This document shows positions 1-8,292 of a DNA stretch of 64,000 nucleotides, one piece after another. How positions within the stretch are numbered: the stretch's first letter is position 1; every line of letters starts with the position of its first letter. The position numbers were made by a program, and so were the translations under genes. The notes below the pieces were generated by a model, which saw nothing but the letters and a program-made list of their open reading frames with translations, searched no databases and had not been told where the DNA came from. This stretch comes from Escherichia coli (GTDB lineage Bacteria > Pseudomonadota > Gammaproteobacteria > Enterobacterales > Enterobacteriaceae): the NCBI RefSeq assembly GCF_003334765.1, contig NZ_QOWT01000001.1; one strand, 5' to 3'.

Positions 1-1072
1 CATGCAGGCGCAGAATGACATAACGCCAGGGAACAGTATGTTTTTCTCGTTTATTGCGTTCGACTTCCTGGAGATTTTTTTCTGCCCAGTCAAATGGGTC
101 GCGTTGTTTGCGCTCGGCAAACCAGGCTTGAGCAAAGGAATCGACATTCAGGCTCTCTAAGGCTATGCGTTGACTCCAGTCTGGATCAGCAAACTTGATT
201 TCCTCTACTATCAATCTAAATACCCGATCCAAAAGGCCCTCTTCGCCTTTTTGAATCTCAGCATTTAATGCCTGATCGGTGACGATGTGTAAGGGCTCGT
301 AGGGAATAGGGCAATAGAAATCGGCTTCGGGTAAAATACCCGTGCGCGACAACAACGTGATATTTAGCTTTTCACTTGCGTTATCGCGGTGAAAAACGAC
401 GTGTTGTTTATCATCTTCAATGAACGAACCATGCTGAATAGCCACTGCCATTGCCGCATCCAGTCCGCTCAAGGATGTTCCCATAATACCCACGTTACAC
501 GCATCGACCTTTGCTTCCATCAGGCCTGACCACGGGCTGGGAAAATACGTTCGGGTTGCTTCTTCTTCATCAGGCCAGACGTGACCCGTGGCGATCACCG
601 CTAAATCAAACGTCTCGCTGGGTAAATCCTGATTTGTAGCGAGCATGACGCCAGCATTTGTAATTTGCAGATCGGTAACCTGGCATGATTCATAAACAGC
701 CACTGCAAATTTTTGCTGTCGTGCCTGGTCTACTAGTCGTAAAAATTGATCGCGGAAATATTCGCCCAGCAGAATTCGCGGTAAAAACTGACGATCGTGC
801 AAGGTTTCTTTTTTAACGCCATAACGCTGGAGATGGCTGTCTTCTTGCTTTTGTAGCCATTCGAGATACGTACAATAAATCGGCGGTATTTCAATACTGG
901 CAATATTTGCCAGCATCATTTTTGAGTTTTCCTCATCACTGTATGGCATCCCGACACCGGCCTCGTCAGCCTGCTCGAAGATAGAAATAGAAAGTGGAGT
1001 TTGTTGCTGTAGAAGCGAGAATAAGGTGTAGATCCCCGTAGGCCCGGCACCCACAATAGCAATTTTTTTCAT
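1..1072 (-). CDS. ydhS: FAD/NAD(P)-binding protein YdhS, N-terminal ~357 codons; 3' end lies beyond the window start
   Basis: Minus-strand frame open from window edge to start codon at 1070-1072; RC reads atgaaaaaaattgctattgtgg = MKKIAIVGAGPTG (dinucleotide-binding GxGxxG). Sits next to ydhR as in K-12. Confidence 0.8.
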   Translation of the reverse strand, partial: MKKIAIVGAGPTGIYTLFSLLQQQTPLSISIFEQADEAGVGMPYSDEENSKMMLANIASIEIPPIYCTYLEWLQKQEDSHLQRYGVKKETLHDRQFLPRILLGEYFRDQFLRLVDQARQQKFAVAVYESCQVTDLQITNAGVMLATNQDLPSETFDLAVIATGHVWPDEEEATRTYFPSPWSGLMEAKVDACNVGIMGTSLSGLDAAMAVAIQHGSFIEDDKQHVVFHRDNASEKLNITLLSRTGILPEADFYCPIPYEPLHIVTDQALNAEIQKGEEGLLDRVFRLIVEEIKFADPDWSQRIALESLNVDSFAQAWFAERKQRDPFDWAEKNLQEVERNKREKHTVPWRYVILRLH

Positions 1073-1197: not shown

Positions 1198-1503
1198 TCA
1201 GGCGAGTTTTGCCTGATTGATTTGACTAAGTGGCTCATTGACATCGAAAACTTTGGCGACAACTTCCTCAACGCCGAGATTTTTCAGTCGGGCAGTATGT
1301 TTTTCCAGATAGGCAAGGGCGCTTTTTTCATCAGTGAAAAGGTAGATCCCACCGGCTTCGTGGTTCTTTTCACTTTCTGTCCATACCTTCCACAGAAAAC
1401 CAGGTTCCTGATTAATCGACTCAGCAAGTGGTTTAAGCTGCTCAGCCATTGCGTCGCCAAATGGGCCATTAAAAGCAAAATGAAGTTGTAACAAAGTTGC
1501 CAT
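1198..1503 (-). CDS. ydhR: Dimeric alpha/beta-barrel family protein YdhR (101 aa)
   Basis: ORF-track 101 aa frame; length and sequence match recalled K-12 YdhR; synteny between ydhS and the tRNA-Val pair. Confidence 0.85.
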
Positions 1504-1610
1504 AGCGATTCTCCTTCTGATAACGCATACGAAGACAGTGTAAATCTTTTAACGTATTGGATACAGAGAAGAAACAGAGGGAAAAAGGAGAAGACCAGAT
1601 TAAGAAAATC

Positions 1611-1687
1611 TGGTGCGTCCGAGTGGACTCGAACCACCGACCCCCACCATGTCAAGGTGGTGCTCTAACCAACTGAGCTACGGACGC
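1611..1687 (-). tRNA. valW: tRNA-Val (anticodon GAC), 77 nt with encoded CCA
   Basis: RC of 1611-1687 is gcgtccgtagctcagttggttagagcaccaccttgacatggtgggggtcggtggttcgagtccactcggacgcacca: canonical D-loop and T-loop (GGTTCGAGTCC), anticodon GAC. valV/valW assignment by synteny is tentative. Confidence 0.9.
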
Positions 1688-1691
1688 AGGA

Positions 1692-1768
1692 TGGTGCGTT
1701 CAATTGGACTCGAACCAACGACCCCCACCATGTCAAGGTGGTGCTCTAACCAACTGAGCTATGAACGC
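1692..1768 (-). tRNA. valV: tRNA-Val (anticodon GAC), 77 nt with encoded CCA; tandem copy separated by a 4-nt spacer
   Basis: RC of 1692-1768 is gcgttcatagctcagttggttagagcaccaccttgacatggtgggggtcgttggttcgagtccaattgaacgcacca; differs from the neighbouring copy only in acceptor/T stem positions. Confidence 0.9.
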
Positions 1769-2075
1769 AACGTTGTAGGTGACAACGGGGACGAATATTA
1801 GCGGCAGAGTGGGAAGGTGGCAAGAGGCAAAACGTAATTTTCTGCGCTATTTCGACCGTTTGCAGAGCTTTTAAGCAAATTGGCTATATTTTGTTGATTT
1901 GCAAGGGTGATTTTTATTCAGGATCGCATTTACATCTGATACAACCCAATAATTCGTGTATCAGAGTTTAAACAGAGTTGTTTGCCACCATCTCAAATCT
2001 GTCGTGGATAAATCCTCCGTAGCCTTTACACTTAGGTAGCAATAAAGGCACACAGATGCAGCAAAGGAATAAATC

Positions 2076-3332
2076 ATGGGATCTGATGCGAAAAACTTGA
2101 TGAGCGACGGGAACGTGCAAATTGTTAAGACCGGCGAGGTCATTGGCGCGACGCAACTTACTGAAGGCGAGTTGATTGTTGAAGCTGGCGGAAGAGCCGA
2201 AAATACCGTGGTCACGGGGGCTGGCTGGTTGAAAGTGGCAACCGGTGGGATCGCCAAATGCACACAGTACGGTAACAATGGCACGCTATCGGTCAGCGAT
2301 GGTGCCATTGCCACAGATATTGTTCAGTCCGAGGGAGGCGCAATTAGTCTCTCTACGCTCGCTACGGTTAATGGCCGCCATCCCGAAGGTGAATTCAGCG
2401 TTGATAAAGGTTATGCCTGCGGTTTGTTGCTGGAAAATGGCGGTAACCTGCGTGTACTGGAAGGACATCGCGCGGAAAAAATCATTCTCGATCAAGAGGG
2501 CGGCCTGTTGGTTAATGGGACAACCTCAGCGGTCGTGGTAGATGAAGGTGGTGAATTGTTGGTGTATCCAGGTGGGGAAGCCAGCAATTGTGAGATTAAT
2601 CAGGGCGGCGTTTTTATGCTGGCCGGGAAAGCCAGTGATACGTTGCTTGCTGGTGGCACCATGAATAATCTCGGTGGTGAAGACTCTGACACTATTGTTG
2701 AGAATGGATCCATTTATCGTCTGGGGACGGATGGCCTTCAGCTCTACAGTTCCGGTAAGACGCAAAACCTGTCCGTGAATGTGGGTGGTCGGGCTGAAGT
2801 GCATGCCGGTACGCTGGAAAACGCGGTAATACAAGGTGGGACAGTGATCCTGTTGTCACCCACCAGCGCGGACGAAAATTTTGTCGTAGAGGAAGATCGC
2901 GCACCGGTTGAACTGACCGGGAGTGTTGCATTACTGGACGGCGCTTCAATGATTATTGGTTATGGCGCAGAGCTGCAACAATCAACGATTACTGTACAGC
3001 AGGGCGGTGTGTTGATTCTAGACGGCAGTACGGTAAAAGGTGACGGTGTCACTTTCATTGTTGGTAACATCAATCTGAATGGTGGAAAACTGTGGCTGAT
3101 CACTGATGCGGCAACGCATGTGCAACTGAAAGTGAAACGCCTGCGCGGAGAGGGAGCGATTTGCCTGCAAACCAGTGCAAAAGAAATTTCACCTGACTTC
3201 ATCAATGTGAAAGGGGAAGTTACCGGGGATATACACGTTGAGATAACAGATGCCAGTCGGCAAACTCTGTGTAACGCTCTGAAATTACAGCCAGACGAAG
3301 ACGGGATTGGCGCAACGCTCCAGCCTGCGTAA
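2076..3332 (+). CDS. ydhQ: Autotransporter-adhesin-related protein YdhQ (418 aa), passenger-like beta-helix repeats without a recognisable beta-barrel translocator
   Basis: ORF-track 418 aa frame; Gly/Asn/Thr-rich repeats typical of AIDA-like passengers (e.g. GGxAxNTVV, GGxLxV); length matches recalled K-12 YdhQ. Confidence 0.85.
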   Translation: MGSDAKNLMSDGNVQIVKTGEVIGATQLTEGELIVEAGGRAENTVVTGAGWLKVATGGIAKCTQYGNNGTLSVSDGAIATDIVQSEGGAISLSTLATVNGRHPEGEFSVDKGYACGLLLENGGNLRVLEGHRAEKIILDQEGGLLVNGTTSAVVVDEGGELLVYPGGEASNCEINQGGVFMLAGKASDTLLAGGTMNNLGGEDSDTIVENGSIYRLGTDGLQLYSSGKTQNLSVNVGGRAEVHAGTLENAVIQGGTVILLSPTSADENFVVEEDRAPVELTGSVALLDGASMIIGYGAELQQSTITVQQGGVLILDGSTVKGDGVTFIVGNINLNGGKLWLITDAATHVQLKVKRLRGEGAICLQTSAKEISPDFINVKGEVTGDIHVEITDASRQTLCNALKLQPDEDGIGATLQPA

Positions 3333-3338
3333 AAATAC

Positions 3339-3372
3339 AGGCGCAACCCGTGAAGGTTGCGCCTTGTCTTTA

Positions 3373-7080: not shown

Positions 7081-8292
7081 TCAGTGTGATTCGCTATGAG
7101 CGACTTCGGCATTGCCATGATTCTGGCAGCCAACTTCTTCACAACGTTGCATCATGTAACCCAGCGCGACCAGCACTACTGTTGATAACATCACGCTGGT
7201 GGTGGTGAGCAATGGCGTGCTGATACTGATCAGCCAGGAAACTACCAGACTTGCGAGGAAGCACAGACCCAGTTGAAGAGTGTTCTGCAACGCTGCGGCG
7301 CGACCAGTTGCGTGTGGGAAGGGACGCAGCGCCTGGGCGACAACAATAGGGTAGATCGCGCCATTGGCAATCGCCATCACACAGAATGGGATCAGGATTT
7401 CGACCAGCGACACATGGCTAATGAAGCCCGCAGCCCAGGTCGCAATGACGCTGACAGCAAACAGCACCAGCAACCACGGTAATAACTGCTTGCCTTGCCA
7501 TTTCTGCAGCGCGGCGCGACAGCCATAACCACCAATCAGAAACGCGATAGTTTGCGGGACATAACTTAAACCAATAACTGCCGGGCTGTAGCCCATTTCA
7601 CTAAGGATGAACGGTGAACCGGTCAGCCATGCAAAAAAACTGGCTGAACAGGCTGCGTATATCAGCACGTTGCCGCGATAGGTTTTAGAACGTAGCAGGT
7701 CGGTAAAGGTCAGACCATCCTGACTATTGTTACGGGCCTTCGTCGTGGGTTTGAGCCAGAAAATAGGCAGAATCAGCACCACGGTAATGGCAAACAGGGT
7801 GGCGAAAATCGCCTGCCAGGAAAAATGGACCAGCAGCCAGCTTCCTAACAGAGGAGCCAGTGCCGGAGATAGACCCACCAGCGGCATGATGGTCGCAAAA
7901 ATACGGTTAACTTTCTGTGAAGGATAATAATCTGTCACTAATGCTTGCCAGATAACCGCCGCGGCGCAGACACCCACAGCCTGTACAAAACGCAATACCA
8001 GCAGCGTAGCGGCGTTTTCTACCCACAGCATCCCCAGACTACCTAACGCAAAAATTGTCAGGCCGATTAATAATACCGGTTTACGACCATAACGGTCGGA
8101 GAGCGGCCCCCACAGAAGCTGGGCTGCGGCAAAACCGGCAAGGAACAGACTAAGGCTGGCACTGACAGCAGACGCAGGCGTTTGCAGGTCGGCCTGTATG
8201 GCGGCGAAAGCAGGCAGATACATATCGGTTGCCAGAAAACCGAGTACGCTCAAACCCGCCAGCCAGACTAAAAATCTTTTCCCAGGTTGCAT
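7081..8292 (-). CDS. punC: MFS transporter YdhC/PunC (purine nucleoside exporter), 403 aa
   Basis: ORF-track 403 aa, 12-TM MFS-like; synteny with the divergent LysR regulator and cfa. Confidence 0.9.

Follow-up and report, generated by a model that had tools for sequence, protein, structure and literature searches.

The stretch of DNA analysed here (the window) comprises 64,000 nucleotides of an Escherichia coli contig (NZ_QOWT01000001.1), and holds an intact ATG-initiated open reading frame that encodes 418 aa and is 100% identical to ydhQ of E. coli K-12 MG1655 (Table 1). The MG1655 annotation calls the product an "AIDA repeat-containing protein", as does PGAP, and it matches the NCBIfam equivalog NF007409/PRK09945 (YdhQ) over its full length (1-418 of 418) with 940.6 bits against a cut-off of 830. 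ydhQ is a catalogued K-12 y-gene with an NCBIfam equivalog of its own, and both the gene and its leaderless state were already known. The points added by our analysis are the purifying selection on the gene, its insertion in a variable spacer between mdtK and valVW, and the delimitation of a passenger fragment that ends inside the autochaperone.

As an earlier note on this DNA had pointed out, ydhQ lies beside a tandem pair of tRNA-Val genes, which ARAGORN and Rfam place 307 bp upstream in divergent orientation. The predicted -35/-10 elements of valVW are at 1823-1795 on the minus strand. A simple sigma-70 scan found no consensus promoter for ydhQ on the plus strand, and among structured RNAs Rfam gave only the tRNAs and tRNA-antisense look-alikes in the 5' region of ydhQ. 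On the other side, the ydhQ stop is separated by 40 bp, occupied by a terminator hairpin, from the end of the convergent mdtK. The computed properties of YdhQ are a mass of 42.8 kDa, a pI of 4.4 and a net charge of about -27. The note had also described the protein as rich in Gly, Asn and Thr; this holds for Gly (15.3%), while the excess of Thr (7.9%) and Asn (5.5%) is slight and Leu, Val and Ala are more abundant.

Table 1. Positions of the features at the ydhQ locus in the window
Feature	Position	Strand	Basis
tandem tRNA-Val(GAC) genes valV/valW (1611-1687 and 1692-1768)	1611..1768	-	ARAGORN; Rfam tRNA, 70.1 and 69.6 bits
ancestral valVW promoter-side spacer common to other Enterobacteriaceae	1769..1870	-	blocks 88-100% identical to Salmonella, Citrobacter, Enterobacter, Leclercia and Kosakonia spacers
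Escherichia-specific 5' part of the insert, putative ydhQ promoter/5'UTR region	1871..2063	+	outgroup homology stops near 1843-1870; conserved among Escherichia
Shine-Dalgarno AAGGA (2064-2068), then in-frame TAA (2070-2072) two codons before the ATG	2064..2072	+	direct read; upstream translations
ydhQ CDS, leaderless and barrel-less beta-helix protein	2076..3332	+	ORF; NF007409; K-12 identity; AF2 model
AIDA/Ag43-type strand-loop-strand rungs, aa 9-211, ~19 residues per turn	2100..2708	+	PF16168; TIGR04415; Ag43/TibA alignments; AF2 strand spacing
most constrained core, aa 81-140, SEGGAISLSTLATVNGRHPEGEFSVDKGYACGLLLENGGNLRVLEGHRAEKIILDQ, overlapping the best AIDA match	2316..2495	+	dN/dS 0.04-0.05; nearly invariant in orthologue alignment
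acidic surface loop, aa 265-273, within ENFVVEEDRAP; sole internal low-confidence segment	2868..2894	+	pLDDT <50 in high-confidence model
truncated pertactin/autochaperone-like C-terminal region, aa 329-403	3060..3284	+	PF03212 positions 1-78 of 121; alignment
bidirectional terminator hairpin between convergent ydhQ and mdtK	3339..3364	.	terminator-like sites, both strands

Passenger fold and missing export modules

The reading of YdhQ as a set of AIDA-I-like beta-helix repeats is borne out by profile, sequence and fold comparisons. The Pfam AIDA family (PF16168) matches at aa 99-159 (2.2e-22), 147-193 and 31-69, and the NCBIfam repeat O_hepto_targRPT (TIGR04415) is found with 43 bits against a cut-off of 30. 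Partial matches to the NCBIfam models auto_Ag43 (4.5e-25), AIDA-I and BafA involve passenger parts exclusively. Among PDB sequences, the matches are to Ag43-family passengers (7ko9, 7koh and 4kh3, about 1e-25 to 2e-22), with aa 26-214 of YdhQ aligning to residues 202-393 of the Ag43 chain 4kh3_A. The alignment-based AF2 model (pLDDT 91.8, pTM 0.88), which we used instead of a single-sequence model that reached a pLDDT of only 69, is all-beta and predicts a beta-helix up to the last residue, with the N-terminal 6 residues disordered. Foldseek places Ag43 (7koh, 7ko9, 7kob and 4kh3) and TibA (4q1q) at the top of its matches to this model (probability 1.0, E 3e-11 to 9e-9). Within the sequence itself the 18-19-residue periodicity is weak, in that offset 54 exceeded all 300 shuffles and offset 19 equalled the best shuffle; therefore the claim of repeats rests mainly on the HMM matches and the model.

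The best match in both sequence and structure is the alpha-domain of Ag43 (Flu/Cah), of the self-associating autotransporter (SAAT) family. Both are three-sided right-handed beta-helices with rungs of ~19 residues, and they share the AIDA-type motif GGA..ST.ATV.G....G.F.V..G.A...LLENGG.L.VL.GH.A. Compared with Ag43, however, YdhQ is without a signal peptide and misses the first ~175 residues of the mature passenger as well as the end of the autochaperone; linker helix and barrel are likewise absent, and the score is 88 bits against an Ag43-family cut-off of 1200. The likeness to AIDA-I and TibA lies in the AIDA Pfam repeats and TIGR04415, with TibA (4q1q) a top structural match at a TMt of 0.59; the match to AIDA-I itself is partial (53.8 bits against a cut-off of 1200) and does not extend to the export modules, and no heptosyltransferase gene adjoins ydhQ.

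The C-terminal half (aa ~170-400) aligns best, at about 30-34% identity, with K-12 autotransporters of the YcgV/YpjA/YdbA/YejO type. Three of the representative autotransporters used in the alignment (P0069, P0110 and P0118) and related segments share with YdhQ the motif GG.M.N.GG.D..T.V..G.VY.LG ... GGRA.V.AGTL ... L.G.G.F...T......D.L.V.G. In contrast to YdhQ, proteins of this type have a linker and a barrel at the end, with a signal peptide at the start of P0110 and P0118. The cluster of P0069, a protein that may correspond to YdbA/YejO, includes E. coli autotransporter fragments. At its C-terminal end YdhQ matches the pertactin-type autochaperone (PF03212, 2.5e-05) with the last third of the model missing. 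In the AF2 model the helix is capped by the long paired strands of this region, whose motif LKVKRLRGEGAICLQT..DFINVKGEVTGDIHVEITD is collinear with full-length autotransporters in the alignment. The full-length relatives continue with AFxL..V.AGAYNY and then with linker and barrel, and the terminal hairpin is absent from YdhQ. In autotransporters the autochaperone templates vectorial folding outside the cell, whereas its counterpart in YdhQ would fold in the cytoplasm.

The N-terminus of YdhQ, MGSDAKNLMSDGN, is acidic, and the first 60 aa contain no hydrophobic core of a signal peptide (maximum Kyte-Doolittle(11) 1.25). SignalP 6.0 likewise predicts no signal peptide (PMC13101318). Nor is there an upstream start or a decayed leader, all three upstream frames being full of stops. 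A longer N-terminus is excluded because an in-frame TAA stands just upstream of the ATG; this codon and the AAGGA before it are kept in E. albertii, E. marmotae and a more distant relative (L003, described below). For the beta-barrel, PF03797 has no Pfam match in YdhQ, barrel structures are absent among the fold matches, and the BafA model is covered at its positions 25-203 of 643 only. A barrel remnant downstream of the gene was ruled out, as only 40 bp, which hold a terminator, precede the end of mdtK. Thus the earlier note was right that neither an N-terminal signal peptide nor a C-terminal translocator is present and that YdhQ cannot be a complete type Va autotransporter, since it is passenger sequence only, without signal peptide, linker or barrel.

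Location and possible role of YdhQ

The reading we favour, and regard as rather probable, is that ydhQ derives from the interior of an Ag43/AIDA-type (type Va) autotransporter gene, is leaderless and barrel-less, has been retained under selection, and acts in the cytoplasm as a putative binding scaffold. The protein would be a soluble, acidic, rod-like right-handed beta-helix that begins at a point equivalent to ~175 residues inside the mature Ag43 alpha-domain, reaches some two thirds of the way through the autochaperone (pertactin) region, and would have lost signal peptide, alpha-helical linker and 12-stranded barrel. Having neither a Sec route nor an outer-membrane pore of its own, YdhQ should therefore fold and stay in the cytoplasm and would not be a classical self-exporting adhesin, an anatomical argument that published reporter data support. 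A YdhQ-pFAST fusion without signal peptide is fluorescent and cytoplasmic, and agarase fusions are inactive without an exogenous signal peptide (PMC13101318), so that YdhQ differs from Ag43 in being cytoplasmic unless a signal peptide is added. Its crosslinking to RNA, its co-purification with EF-Tu and its quantification by proteomics, all described below, are further points for a cytoplasmic and expressed protein. The role of YdhQ is probably cytoplasmic. Binding could take place on the lateral helix faces, above all at the rungs of aa 81-140, which are nearly invariant, and the scaffold might either self-associate as Ag43 does or hold a cytoplasmic partner. Whether it is called an "autotransporter" or used as an "anchor" for display, YdhQ needs an account of barrel-less anchoring; it is also a tractable candidate for the intracellular re-use of an extracellular beta-helix fold.

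It would be conceivable that YdhQ is still an adhesin, which leaves the cytoplasm non-classically, to end up on the surface or in the medium (in vesicles, through lysis, or by leaderless export, for example through the flagellar type III export apparatus), and aids early attachment. Two papers label YdhQ an adhesin and credit a role in early adhesion to Roux et al. 2005 (PMC9110714, PMC13101318), and YdhQ is listed in the COG3468 cluster of extracellular-vesicle proteomes (PMC10458587). Several further points are suggestive. An FlhDC site mapped by gSELEX lies in the ydhQ-valV spacer, within 1769..1870 (PMC9962212), and the ydhQ mRNA is a predicted target of CsrA, seen as a target in one omics study, as is the case for many biofilm genes. 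The disordered N-terminal 6 residues, and the passenger fold with Ag43-like rungs, which by analogy could act as the parts that mediate Ag43 self-association do, would fit an adhesin as well. Site-wise positive selection on ydhQ, reported in one study, is a pattern more typical of surface proteins and counts against the cytoplasmic reading. However, YdhQ has no signal peptide, the cytoplasmic fusion and the need for a supplied signal peptide in the agarase fusions speak against secretion, and the crosslinking of YdhQ to RNA (see below) implies a cytoplasmic pool. Moreover, the FlhDC site was found in vitro only and is nearer the tRNA promoter than ydhQ. K-12 is not known to have a T6SS or a dedicated T1SS for YdhQ, which also counts against this alternative. 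Taken together, we consider an adhesin role unlikely.

A cytoplasmic location would also suit the idea that YdhQ is an exapted passenger, a beta-helix that first evolved to fold extracellularly and whose new, cytoplasmic role is linked to RNA or the translation machinery, for which we see a still smaller chance. Two observations hint at such a role: YdhQ is among 17 unannotated proteins in an OOPS RBPome, as judged by UV crosslinking and RNase sensitivity (bioRxiv 10.1101/2023.07.03.547468), and it co-purified with EF-Tu (PMC2672614). Given its acidity, YdhQ is unlikely to be a direct RNA binder. It might serve as an acidic rod-shaped scaffold or nucleic-acid mimic. EF-Tu, in turn, is a common co-purification contaminant, which weakens its link to YdhQ. 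If true, this exaptation would be a rare documented case of a secretion-cargo domain recruited intracellularly and fixed across a genus.

Conservation and selection

The earlier note had proposed either a decayed adhesin gene or a protein repurposed for another function. Were ydhQ a functionless relic, it would be a truncated autotransporter pseudogene that has not yet acquired disabling mutations. It would be tempting to infer this from the absence of two of the three autotransport modules, and from precedents: ydbA, yaiT and ycgH of K-12 are pseudogenised or truncated type Va autotransporters, and such pseudogenes are common elsewhere, for example in Brucella (PMC8111173). These have lost export modules, as ydhQ has; however, they carry frameshifts, stops or IS elements and vary among strains, whereas ydhQ has a clean ORF, conserved ends and purifying selection. 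The delta-ydhQ mutation serves as a neutral control with no reported effect on T7 infection (PMC6962156; GMT preprint), and this use of deletion strains, for which no laboratory phenotype is reported, would be compatible with a relic, as would the rare disruption by an IS element that is tolerated (ISEcp1 in strain AR_0013).

The comparison of orthologues largely refutes this alternative, which we regard as very improbable. ydhQ is present in 5420 of 5426 complete E. coli genomes (>=80% query coverage), and the most divergent allele sampled in E. coli still encodes 418 aa. Orthologues of 418 aa with 80-90% identity occur in E. ruysiae, E. whittamii, E. marmotae and E. albertii, and a relative with 71% identity (L003) has 419 aa; in E. 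albertii, E. marmotae, E. whittamii and the 71% relative the locus was confirmed to be syntenic. E. fergusonii is not among the loci listed, and our statements on Escherichia as a whole leave that species out. All eight orthologues read as DNA, with those of E. albertii, E. marmotae and E. whittamii among them, have identical start and stop (418 aa in seven, 419 aa in L003), and no frameshift or stop was found across the eight lineages. The dN/dS of ydhQ is 0.097-0.128 at a dS of 0.8-1.0, so that about one substitution per synonymous site has accumulated and yet the gene is intact in every one of these lineages. Along the gene, dN/dS is 0.04-0.25 in the windows in which it was computable, and the constraint reaches the C-terminal end. 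The protein is also expressed, having been quantified by proteomics (PMC6561319) and recovered in the RBPome (bioRxiv 10.1101/2023.07.03.547468).

The neighbours evolve more slowly: dN/dS is 0.012-0.05 for mdtK, ribC, cfa and ydhC and 0.06-0.09 for ydhR, which leaves ydhQ at 3-10 times the value of the housekeeping genes. Its dN of about 0.10-0.11 compares with 0.007-0.03 for those four and 0.03-0.05 for ydhR, and its dS is higher too. This faster evolution is a point for the relic and counts against our favoured reading. As judged from the sequences, nevertheless, ydhQ is under purifying selection in the Escherichia species sampled and is not decaying; because selection has kept it intact, we regard it as a retained protein. 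The first of the two earlier proposals, decay, is thus not supported, and the second, repurposing, fits the evidence, with the new function itself putative.

An old insertion in a variable spacer

In at least 45 non-Escherichia loci of Enterobacteriaceae, a gap of about 150-200 bp separates mdtK from the tRNA-Val pair and ydhQ is absent, and among the loci listed only those of Escherichia have ydhQ at this site. This arrangement in the outgroups marks ydhQ as an old insertion, specific to Escherichia and ~1.5 kb long, into a spacer that is variable. Together with its own 5' region, the fragment entered between the terminator of mdtK and the promoter of valVW in an ancestor of Escherichia, before E. 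coli and E. albertii diverged, and purifying selection has kept it intact since. In the genera without ydhQ the mdtK terminator is a different one, with the hairpin AGCCGCC...GGCGGCT in the outgroup spacers. An exhaustive search of representatives for a full-length progenitor found nothing between the orthologue cluster (>=50% identity) and a 38%-identical autotransporter of 1534 aa (P0026), so that no donor can be named.

That ydhQ is the remnant of a recent genomic island integrated at the tRNA-Val genes is hardly tenable and is refuted as far as "recent" is concerned: although ydhQ adjoins the tRNA pair, is absent there from the other genera listed, and occupies a spacer that has different cargo in six of them, it is syntenic across Escherichia species, and neither its GC (51.5%; window, 50.8%) nor its GC3 departs from what is typical of the region. 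Between ydhR and mdtK there is no ORF for an integrase or other mobility function, and the insert is found at the 5' (promoter) end of the tRNA operon, whereas the targets of integrases are the 3' ends of tRNAs. The earlier description of a classic site for remnant or acquired DNA thus applies in part, in that the DNA was acquired at a site used by other cargo, and not as a tRNA island of the classic kind. In a weak sense the island reading stands, as an ancient lineage-specific insertion into a spacer that has been variable elsewhere too: at least 16 outgroup loci have other inserts, of 0.4-4.8 kb, between mdtK and valVW, and the cargo differs in Citrobacter, Raoultella, Klebsiella, Pseudescherichia, Kosakonia and Yokenella.

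Domain content, extent and fold of YdhQ

YdhQ resembles the passengers of Ag43, AIDA and TibA in both sequence and fold, but it lacks two of the features that define type Va autotransporters, namely a signal peptide and a barrel with its linker. This agrees with the earlier note, which had proposed a beta-helix protein with AIDA-type repeats that cannot be a complete type Va autotransporter. Besides the Pfam AIDA repeats (Table), a search of PDB sequences recovered Ag43-family passengers (1.5e-25 to 3.7e-22) and TibA. YdhQ aa 26-214 pair with 4kh3_A, an Ag43 chain, over its residues 202-393, so that the YdhQ start corresponds to a point ~175 residues inside the mature Ag43 passenger. At the other end, YdhQ and the passenger halves from full-length relatives align collinearly up to and including the junction motif LKVKRLRGEGAICLQT..DFINVKGEVTGDIHVEITD, and its C-terminus falls ~20-30 residues short of the terminal hairpin that precedes the linker and barrel in these relatives. 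NCBIfam has an equivalog for YdhQ itself (NF007409/PRK09945), to which the protein fully belongs, with a full-length match of 940.6 bits (cut-off 830); the NCBIfam Ag43, AIDA-I and BafA matches are partial, passenger-only and far under their cut-offs, and the O-heptosyltransferase target repeat exceeds its own cut-off. The protein has a computed mass of 42.8 kDa, a pI of 4.4 and a net charge of about -27. Its description as Gly/Asn/Thr-rich is only partly accurate, holding for Gly (15.3%, followed by Leu, Val and Ala), because Thr (7.9%) and Asn (5.5%) are raised only slightly.

Features of the ydhQ locus and of its product
Feature	Position	Strand	Details
HPnc0260 bacterial antisense RNA match (Rfam)	1502-1649	+	96.5 bits; gathering score 59
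tRNA-Val(GAC) pair	1611-1687 and 1692-1768	opposite to ydhQ	307 bp upstream of ydhQ
Predicted valVW promoter (-35/-10)	1823-1795	-	
FlhDC gSELEX site	1826-1866		
In-frame TAA	2070-2072	+	directly after a good Shine-Dalgarno sequence, upstream of the ydhQ ATG
ydhQ ORF	2076-3332	+	ATG start; 418 aa
AIDA PF16168 (Pfam)	aa 99-159, 147-193, 31-69		2.2e-22 for aa 99-159
Pertactin PF03212 (Pfam)	aa 329-403		model positions 1-78 of 121
Bidirectional terminator hairpin	3339-3364	both	occupies the 40 bp between ydhQ and the mdtK stop

Both export modules are absent, as had been supposed. No hydrophobic core was found at the N-terminus (MGSDAKNLMSDGN), where KD(11) reaches at most 1.25 over the first 60 residues, and translation reveals stops throughout all frames upstream of the start, whose context is common to E. 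albertii, E. marmotae and a 71% relative. An independent 2026 report likewise found no signal peptide with SignalP 6.0 (PMC13101318). The Pfam search detected no beta-barrel family in YdhQ, and only 40 bp separate the gene from the mdtK stop.

The single-sequence AF2 model was mediocre (pLDDT 69), and a 17-sequence alignment gave a model with pLDDT 91.8 and pTM 0.88, in which low confidence is confined to residues 1-6 and an acidic loop at 265-273. The alignment-based model is predicted to be all-beta with regular rungs of ~19 residues. Its Foldseek matches in the PDB were Ag43 (7koh, 7ko9, 7kob, 4kh3) and TibA (4q1q), with probability 1.0 and E-values of 3e-11 to 9e-9, followed by the passengers of UpaB, IgA1 protease, Hbp and pertactin; no barrel structure was among them.

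Conservation and selection

Earlier work had already described and annotated the gene and noted that its product lacks a leader; this analysis adds a test of selection, the limits of the fragment and a reconstructed insertion site. E. coli K-12 MG1655, in which RefSeq names the gene 'ydhQ: AIDA repeat-containing protein', is 100% identical over the 2-kb ydhQ region, and 5420 of 5426 complete E. coli genomes contain the region at >=80% coverage. One of the other six is E. coli AR_0013 (NZ_CP032204.1), in which an ISEcp1-family transposase insertion splits the gene (fetched locus L087, 4578-7495). Even the most divergent E. coli allele fetched encodes 418 aa, as do the orthologues of E. ruysiae (90%), Escherichia sp. 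E4742 (87%), E. marmotae (83%) and E. albertii (80%); the E. whittamii locus likewise stands at 87%, and the orthologue of the 71% relative has 419 aa. The gene order ydhR(-), valW/valV(-), ydhQ(+), mdtK(-), ribC(+), cfa(-), ydhC(-) is retained wherever Escherichia loci are long enough, and the flanks match in the 71% relative also.

By the Nei-Gojobori method, pairs among E. coli, E. albertii and E. marmotae gave a ydhQ dN/dS of 0.097-0.128 at a dS of 0.78-1.03, compared with 0.012-0.034 for mdtK, ribC and cfa, 0.04-0.05 for ydhC and 0.06-0.09 for ydhR. Purifying selection on ydhQ is clear, and it is weaker than on the housekeeping neighbours. Sliding-window omega was 0.04-0.25 across computable windows, one window being synonymous-saturated, and was lowest (0.04-0.05) at aa 81-140. 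The idea of a decayed adhesin gene is therefore rejected, given these ratios, the presence of the gene in nearly all complete genomes, and an intact ORF with identical start and stop in all eight orthologues read as DNA.

The dS of ydhQ is ~1.3-1.7 times that of mdtK, ribC, cfa and ydhC (0.48-0.86), a difference that may come from weaker codon bias or from a recombination history of its own. Seven YdhQ variants (P0003, P0007-P0009, P0012, P0013 and P0015), each from one E. coli genome, cover 100% of the query with 370-402 aa; unless they are assembly or annotation artefacts, they appear to have arisen by in-frame internal deletion, perhaps of helix rungs.

Origin at the mdtK-tRNA-Val spacer

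When the syntenic mdtK-tRNA site was fetched by MdtK from 80 species genomes, ydhQ was restricted to Escherichia loci among the matches listed. The mdtK stop lies ~150-200 bp from the tRNA-Val genes in at least 45 non-Escherichia loci (among them Salmonella enterica arizonae, Citrobacter amalonaticus, C. sedlakii, Enterobacter, Lelliottia, Leclercia, Kosakonia, Trabulsiella, Atlantibacter and the Klebsiella oxytoca group). Since outgroup spacers are homologous to the window only over ~1754-1870, the valVW promoter side, and since their mdtK terminator is unlike the E. coli hairpin, the ~1.5 kb that hold ydhQ, ~200 bp of sequence 5' to it and a new terminator entered a variable spacer long ago, by insertion or replacement. 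The location beside the tandem tRNA-Val genes was noted correctly, and the idea of tRNA-adjacent remnant or acquired DNA holds insofar as the insertion is absent from the loci of other genera, but what was acquired is an ancient, conserved gene. The insert lies 5' of the tRNA operon, no integrase was found among the ORFs at the locus, and GC content shows no anomaly (0.515 for ydhQ, 0.508 for the window). No donor emerged: when 1.84 billion representatives were searched exhaustively, there was no intermediate between the YdhQ orthologue cluster and a 38%-identical autotransporter of 1534 aa.

The same spacer is a lineage-specific insertion hotspot in Enterobacteriaceae (window 3333-3372 and 1769-1870; ~7372-7530 in fetched loci L011-L085). 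Unrelated inserts of 0.4-4.8 kb occupy it in at least 16 other loci and, as read from translations, appear to encode a porin-like protein and a membrane protein in Citrobacter sp. R56 (L028), regulator-like and oxidoreductase-like ORFs and a basic repeat protein in Raoultella (L045, L053, L060, L069), TetR-like and SDR-like ORFs in Pseudescherichia (L074, L076), and an acyltransferase-like ORF in L050.

Expression, location and function

The best reading is that YdhQ is a soluble cytoplasmic beta-helix that acts by binding. A YdhQ-pFAST fusion free of a signal peptide was fluorescent and cytoplasmic, and agarase fusions were then inactive (PMC13101318). YdhQ is among 17 unannotated proteins of the OOPS RBPome (UV-crosslinked, RNase-sensitive; bioRxiv 10.1101/2023.07.03.547468), co-purifies with EF-Tu (PMC2672614) and is detected by proteomics (PMC6561319); its mRNA is a predicted CsrA target, observed as such in one omics study. 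Binding might occur through the lateral faces of the helix, and the near-invariant rungs at aa 81-140 would be the likely functional surface. Three reports count against a purely cytoplasmic role: an early-adhesion role, attributed to YdhQ in secondary citations of Roux et al. 2005 (PMC9110714); a vesicle-proteome COG cluster that lists YdhQ (PMC10458587); and site-wise positive selection on ydhQ in one scan. A delta-ydhQ strain serves as a neutral control (PMC6962156). The 2026 surface-display paper claims that YdhQ, with a signal peptide added, displays cargo as an 'autotransporter anchor scaffold' (PMC13101318). This role fits poorly with a protein that has neither barrel nor linker, and periplasmic leakage could account for such display.

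An FlhDC site found in vitro by gSELEX in the ydhQ-valV spacer (PMC9962212) lies in a segment common to genera without ydhQ and adjoins the predicted valVW promoter; if real, it may control the tRNA operon rather than ydhQ. The HPnc0260 match is antisense to tRNA-Val and the ydhR-tRNA spacer, and weaker Plastid-ycf2 and YrlA matches fall on the tRNAs; all three are most likely due to tRNA-derived sequence within these families rather than to a separate gene.
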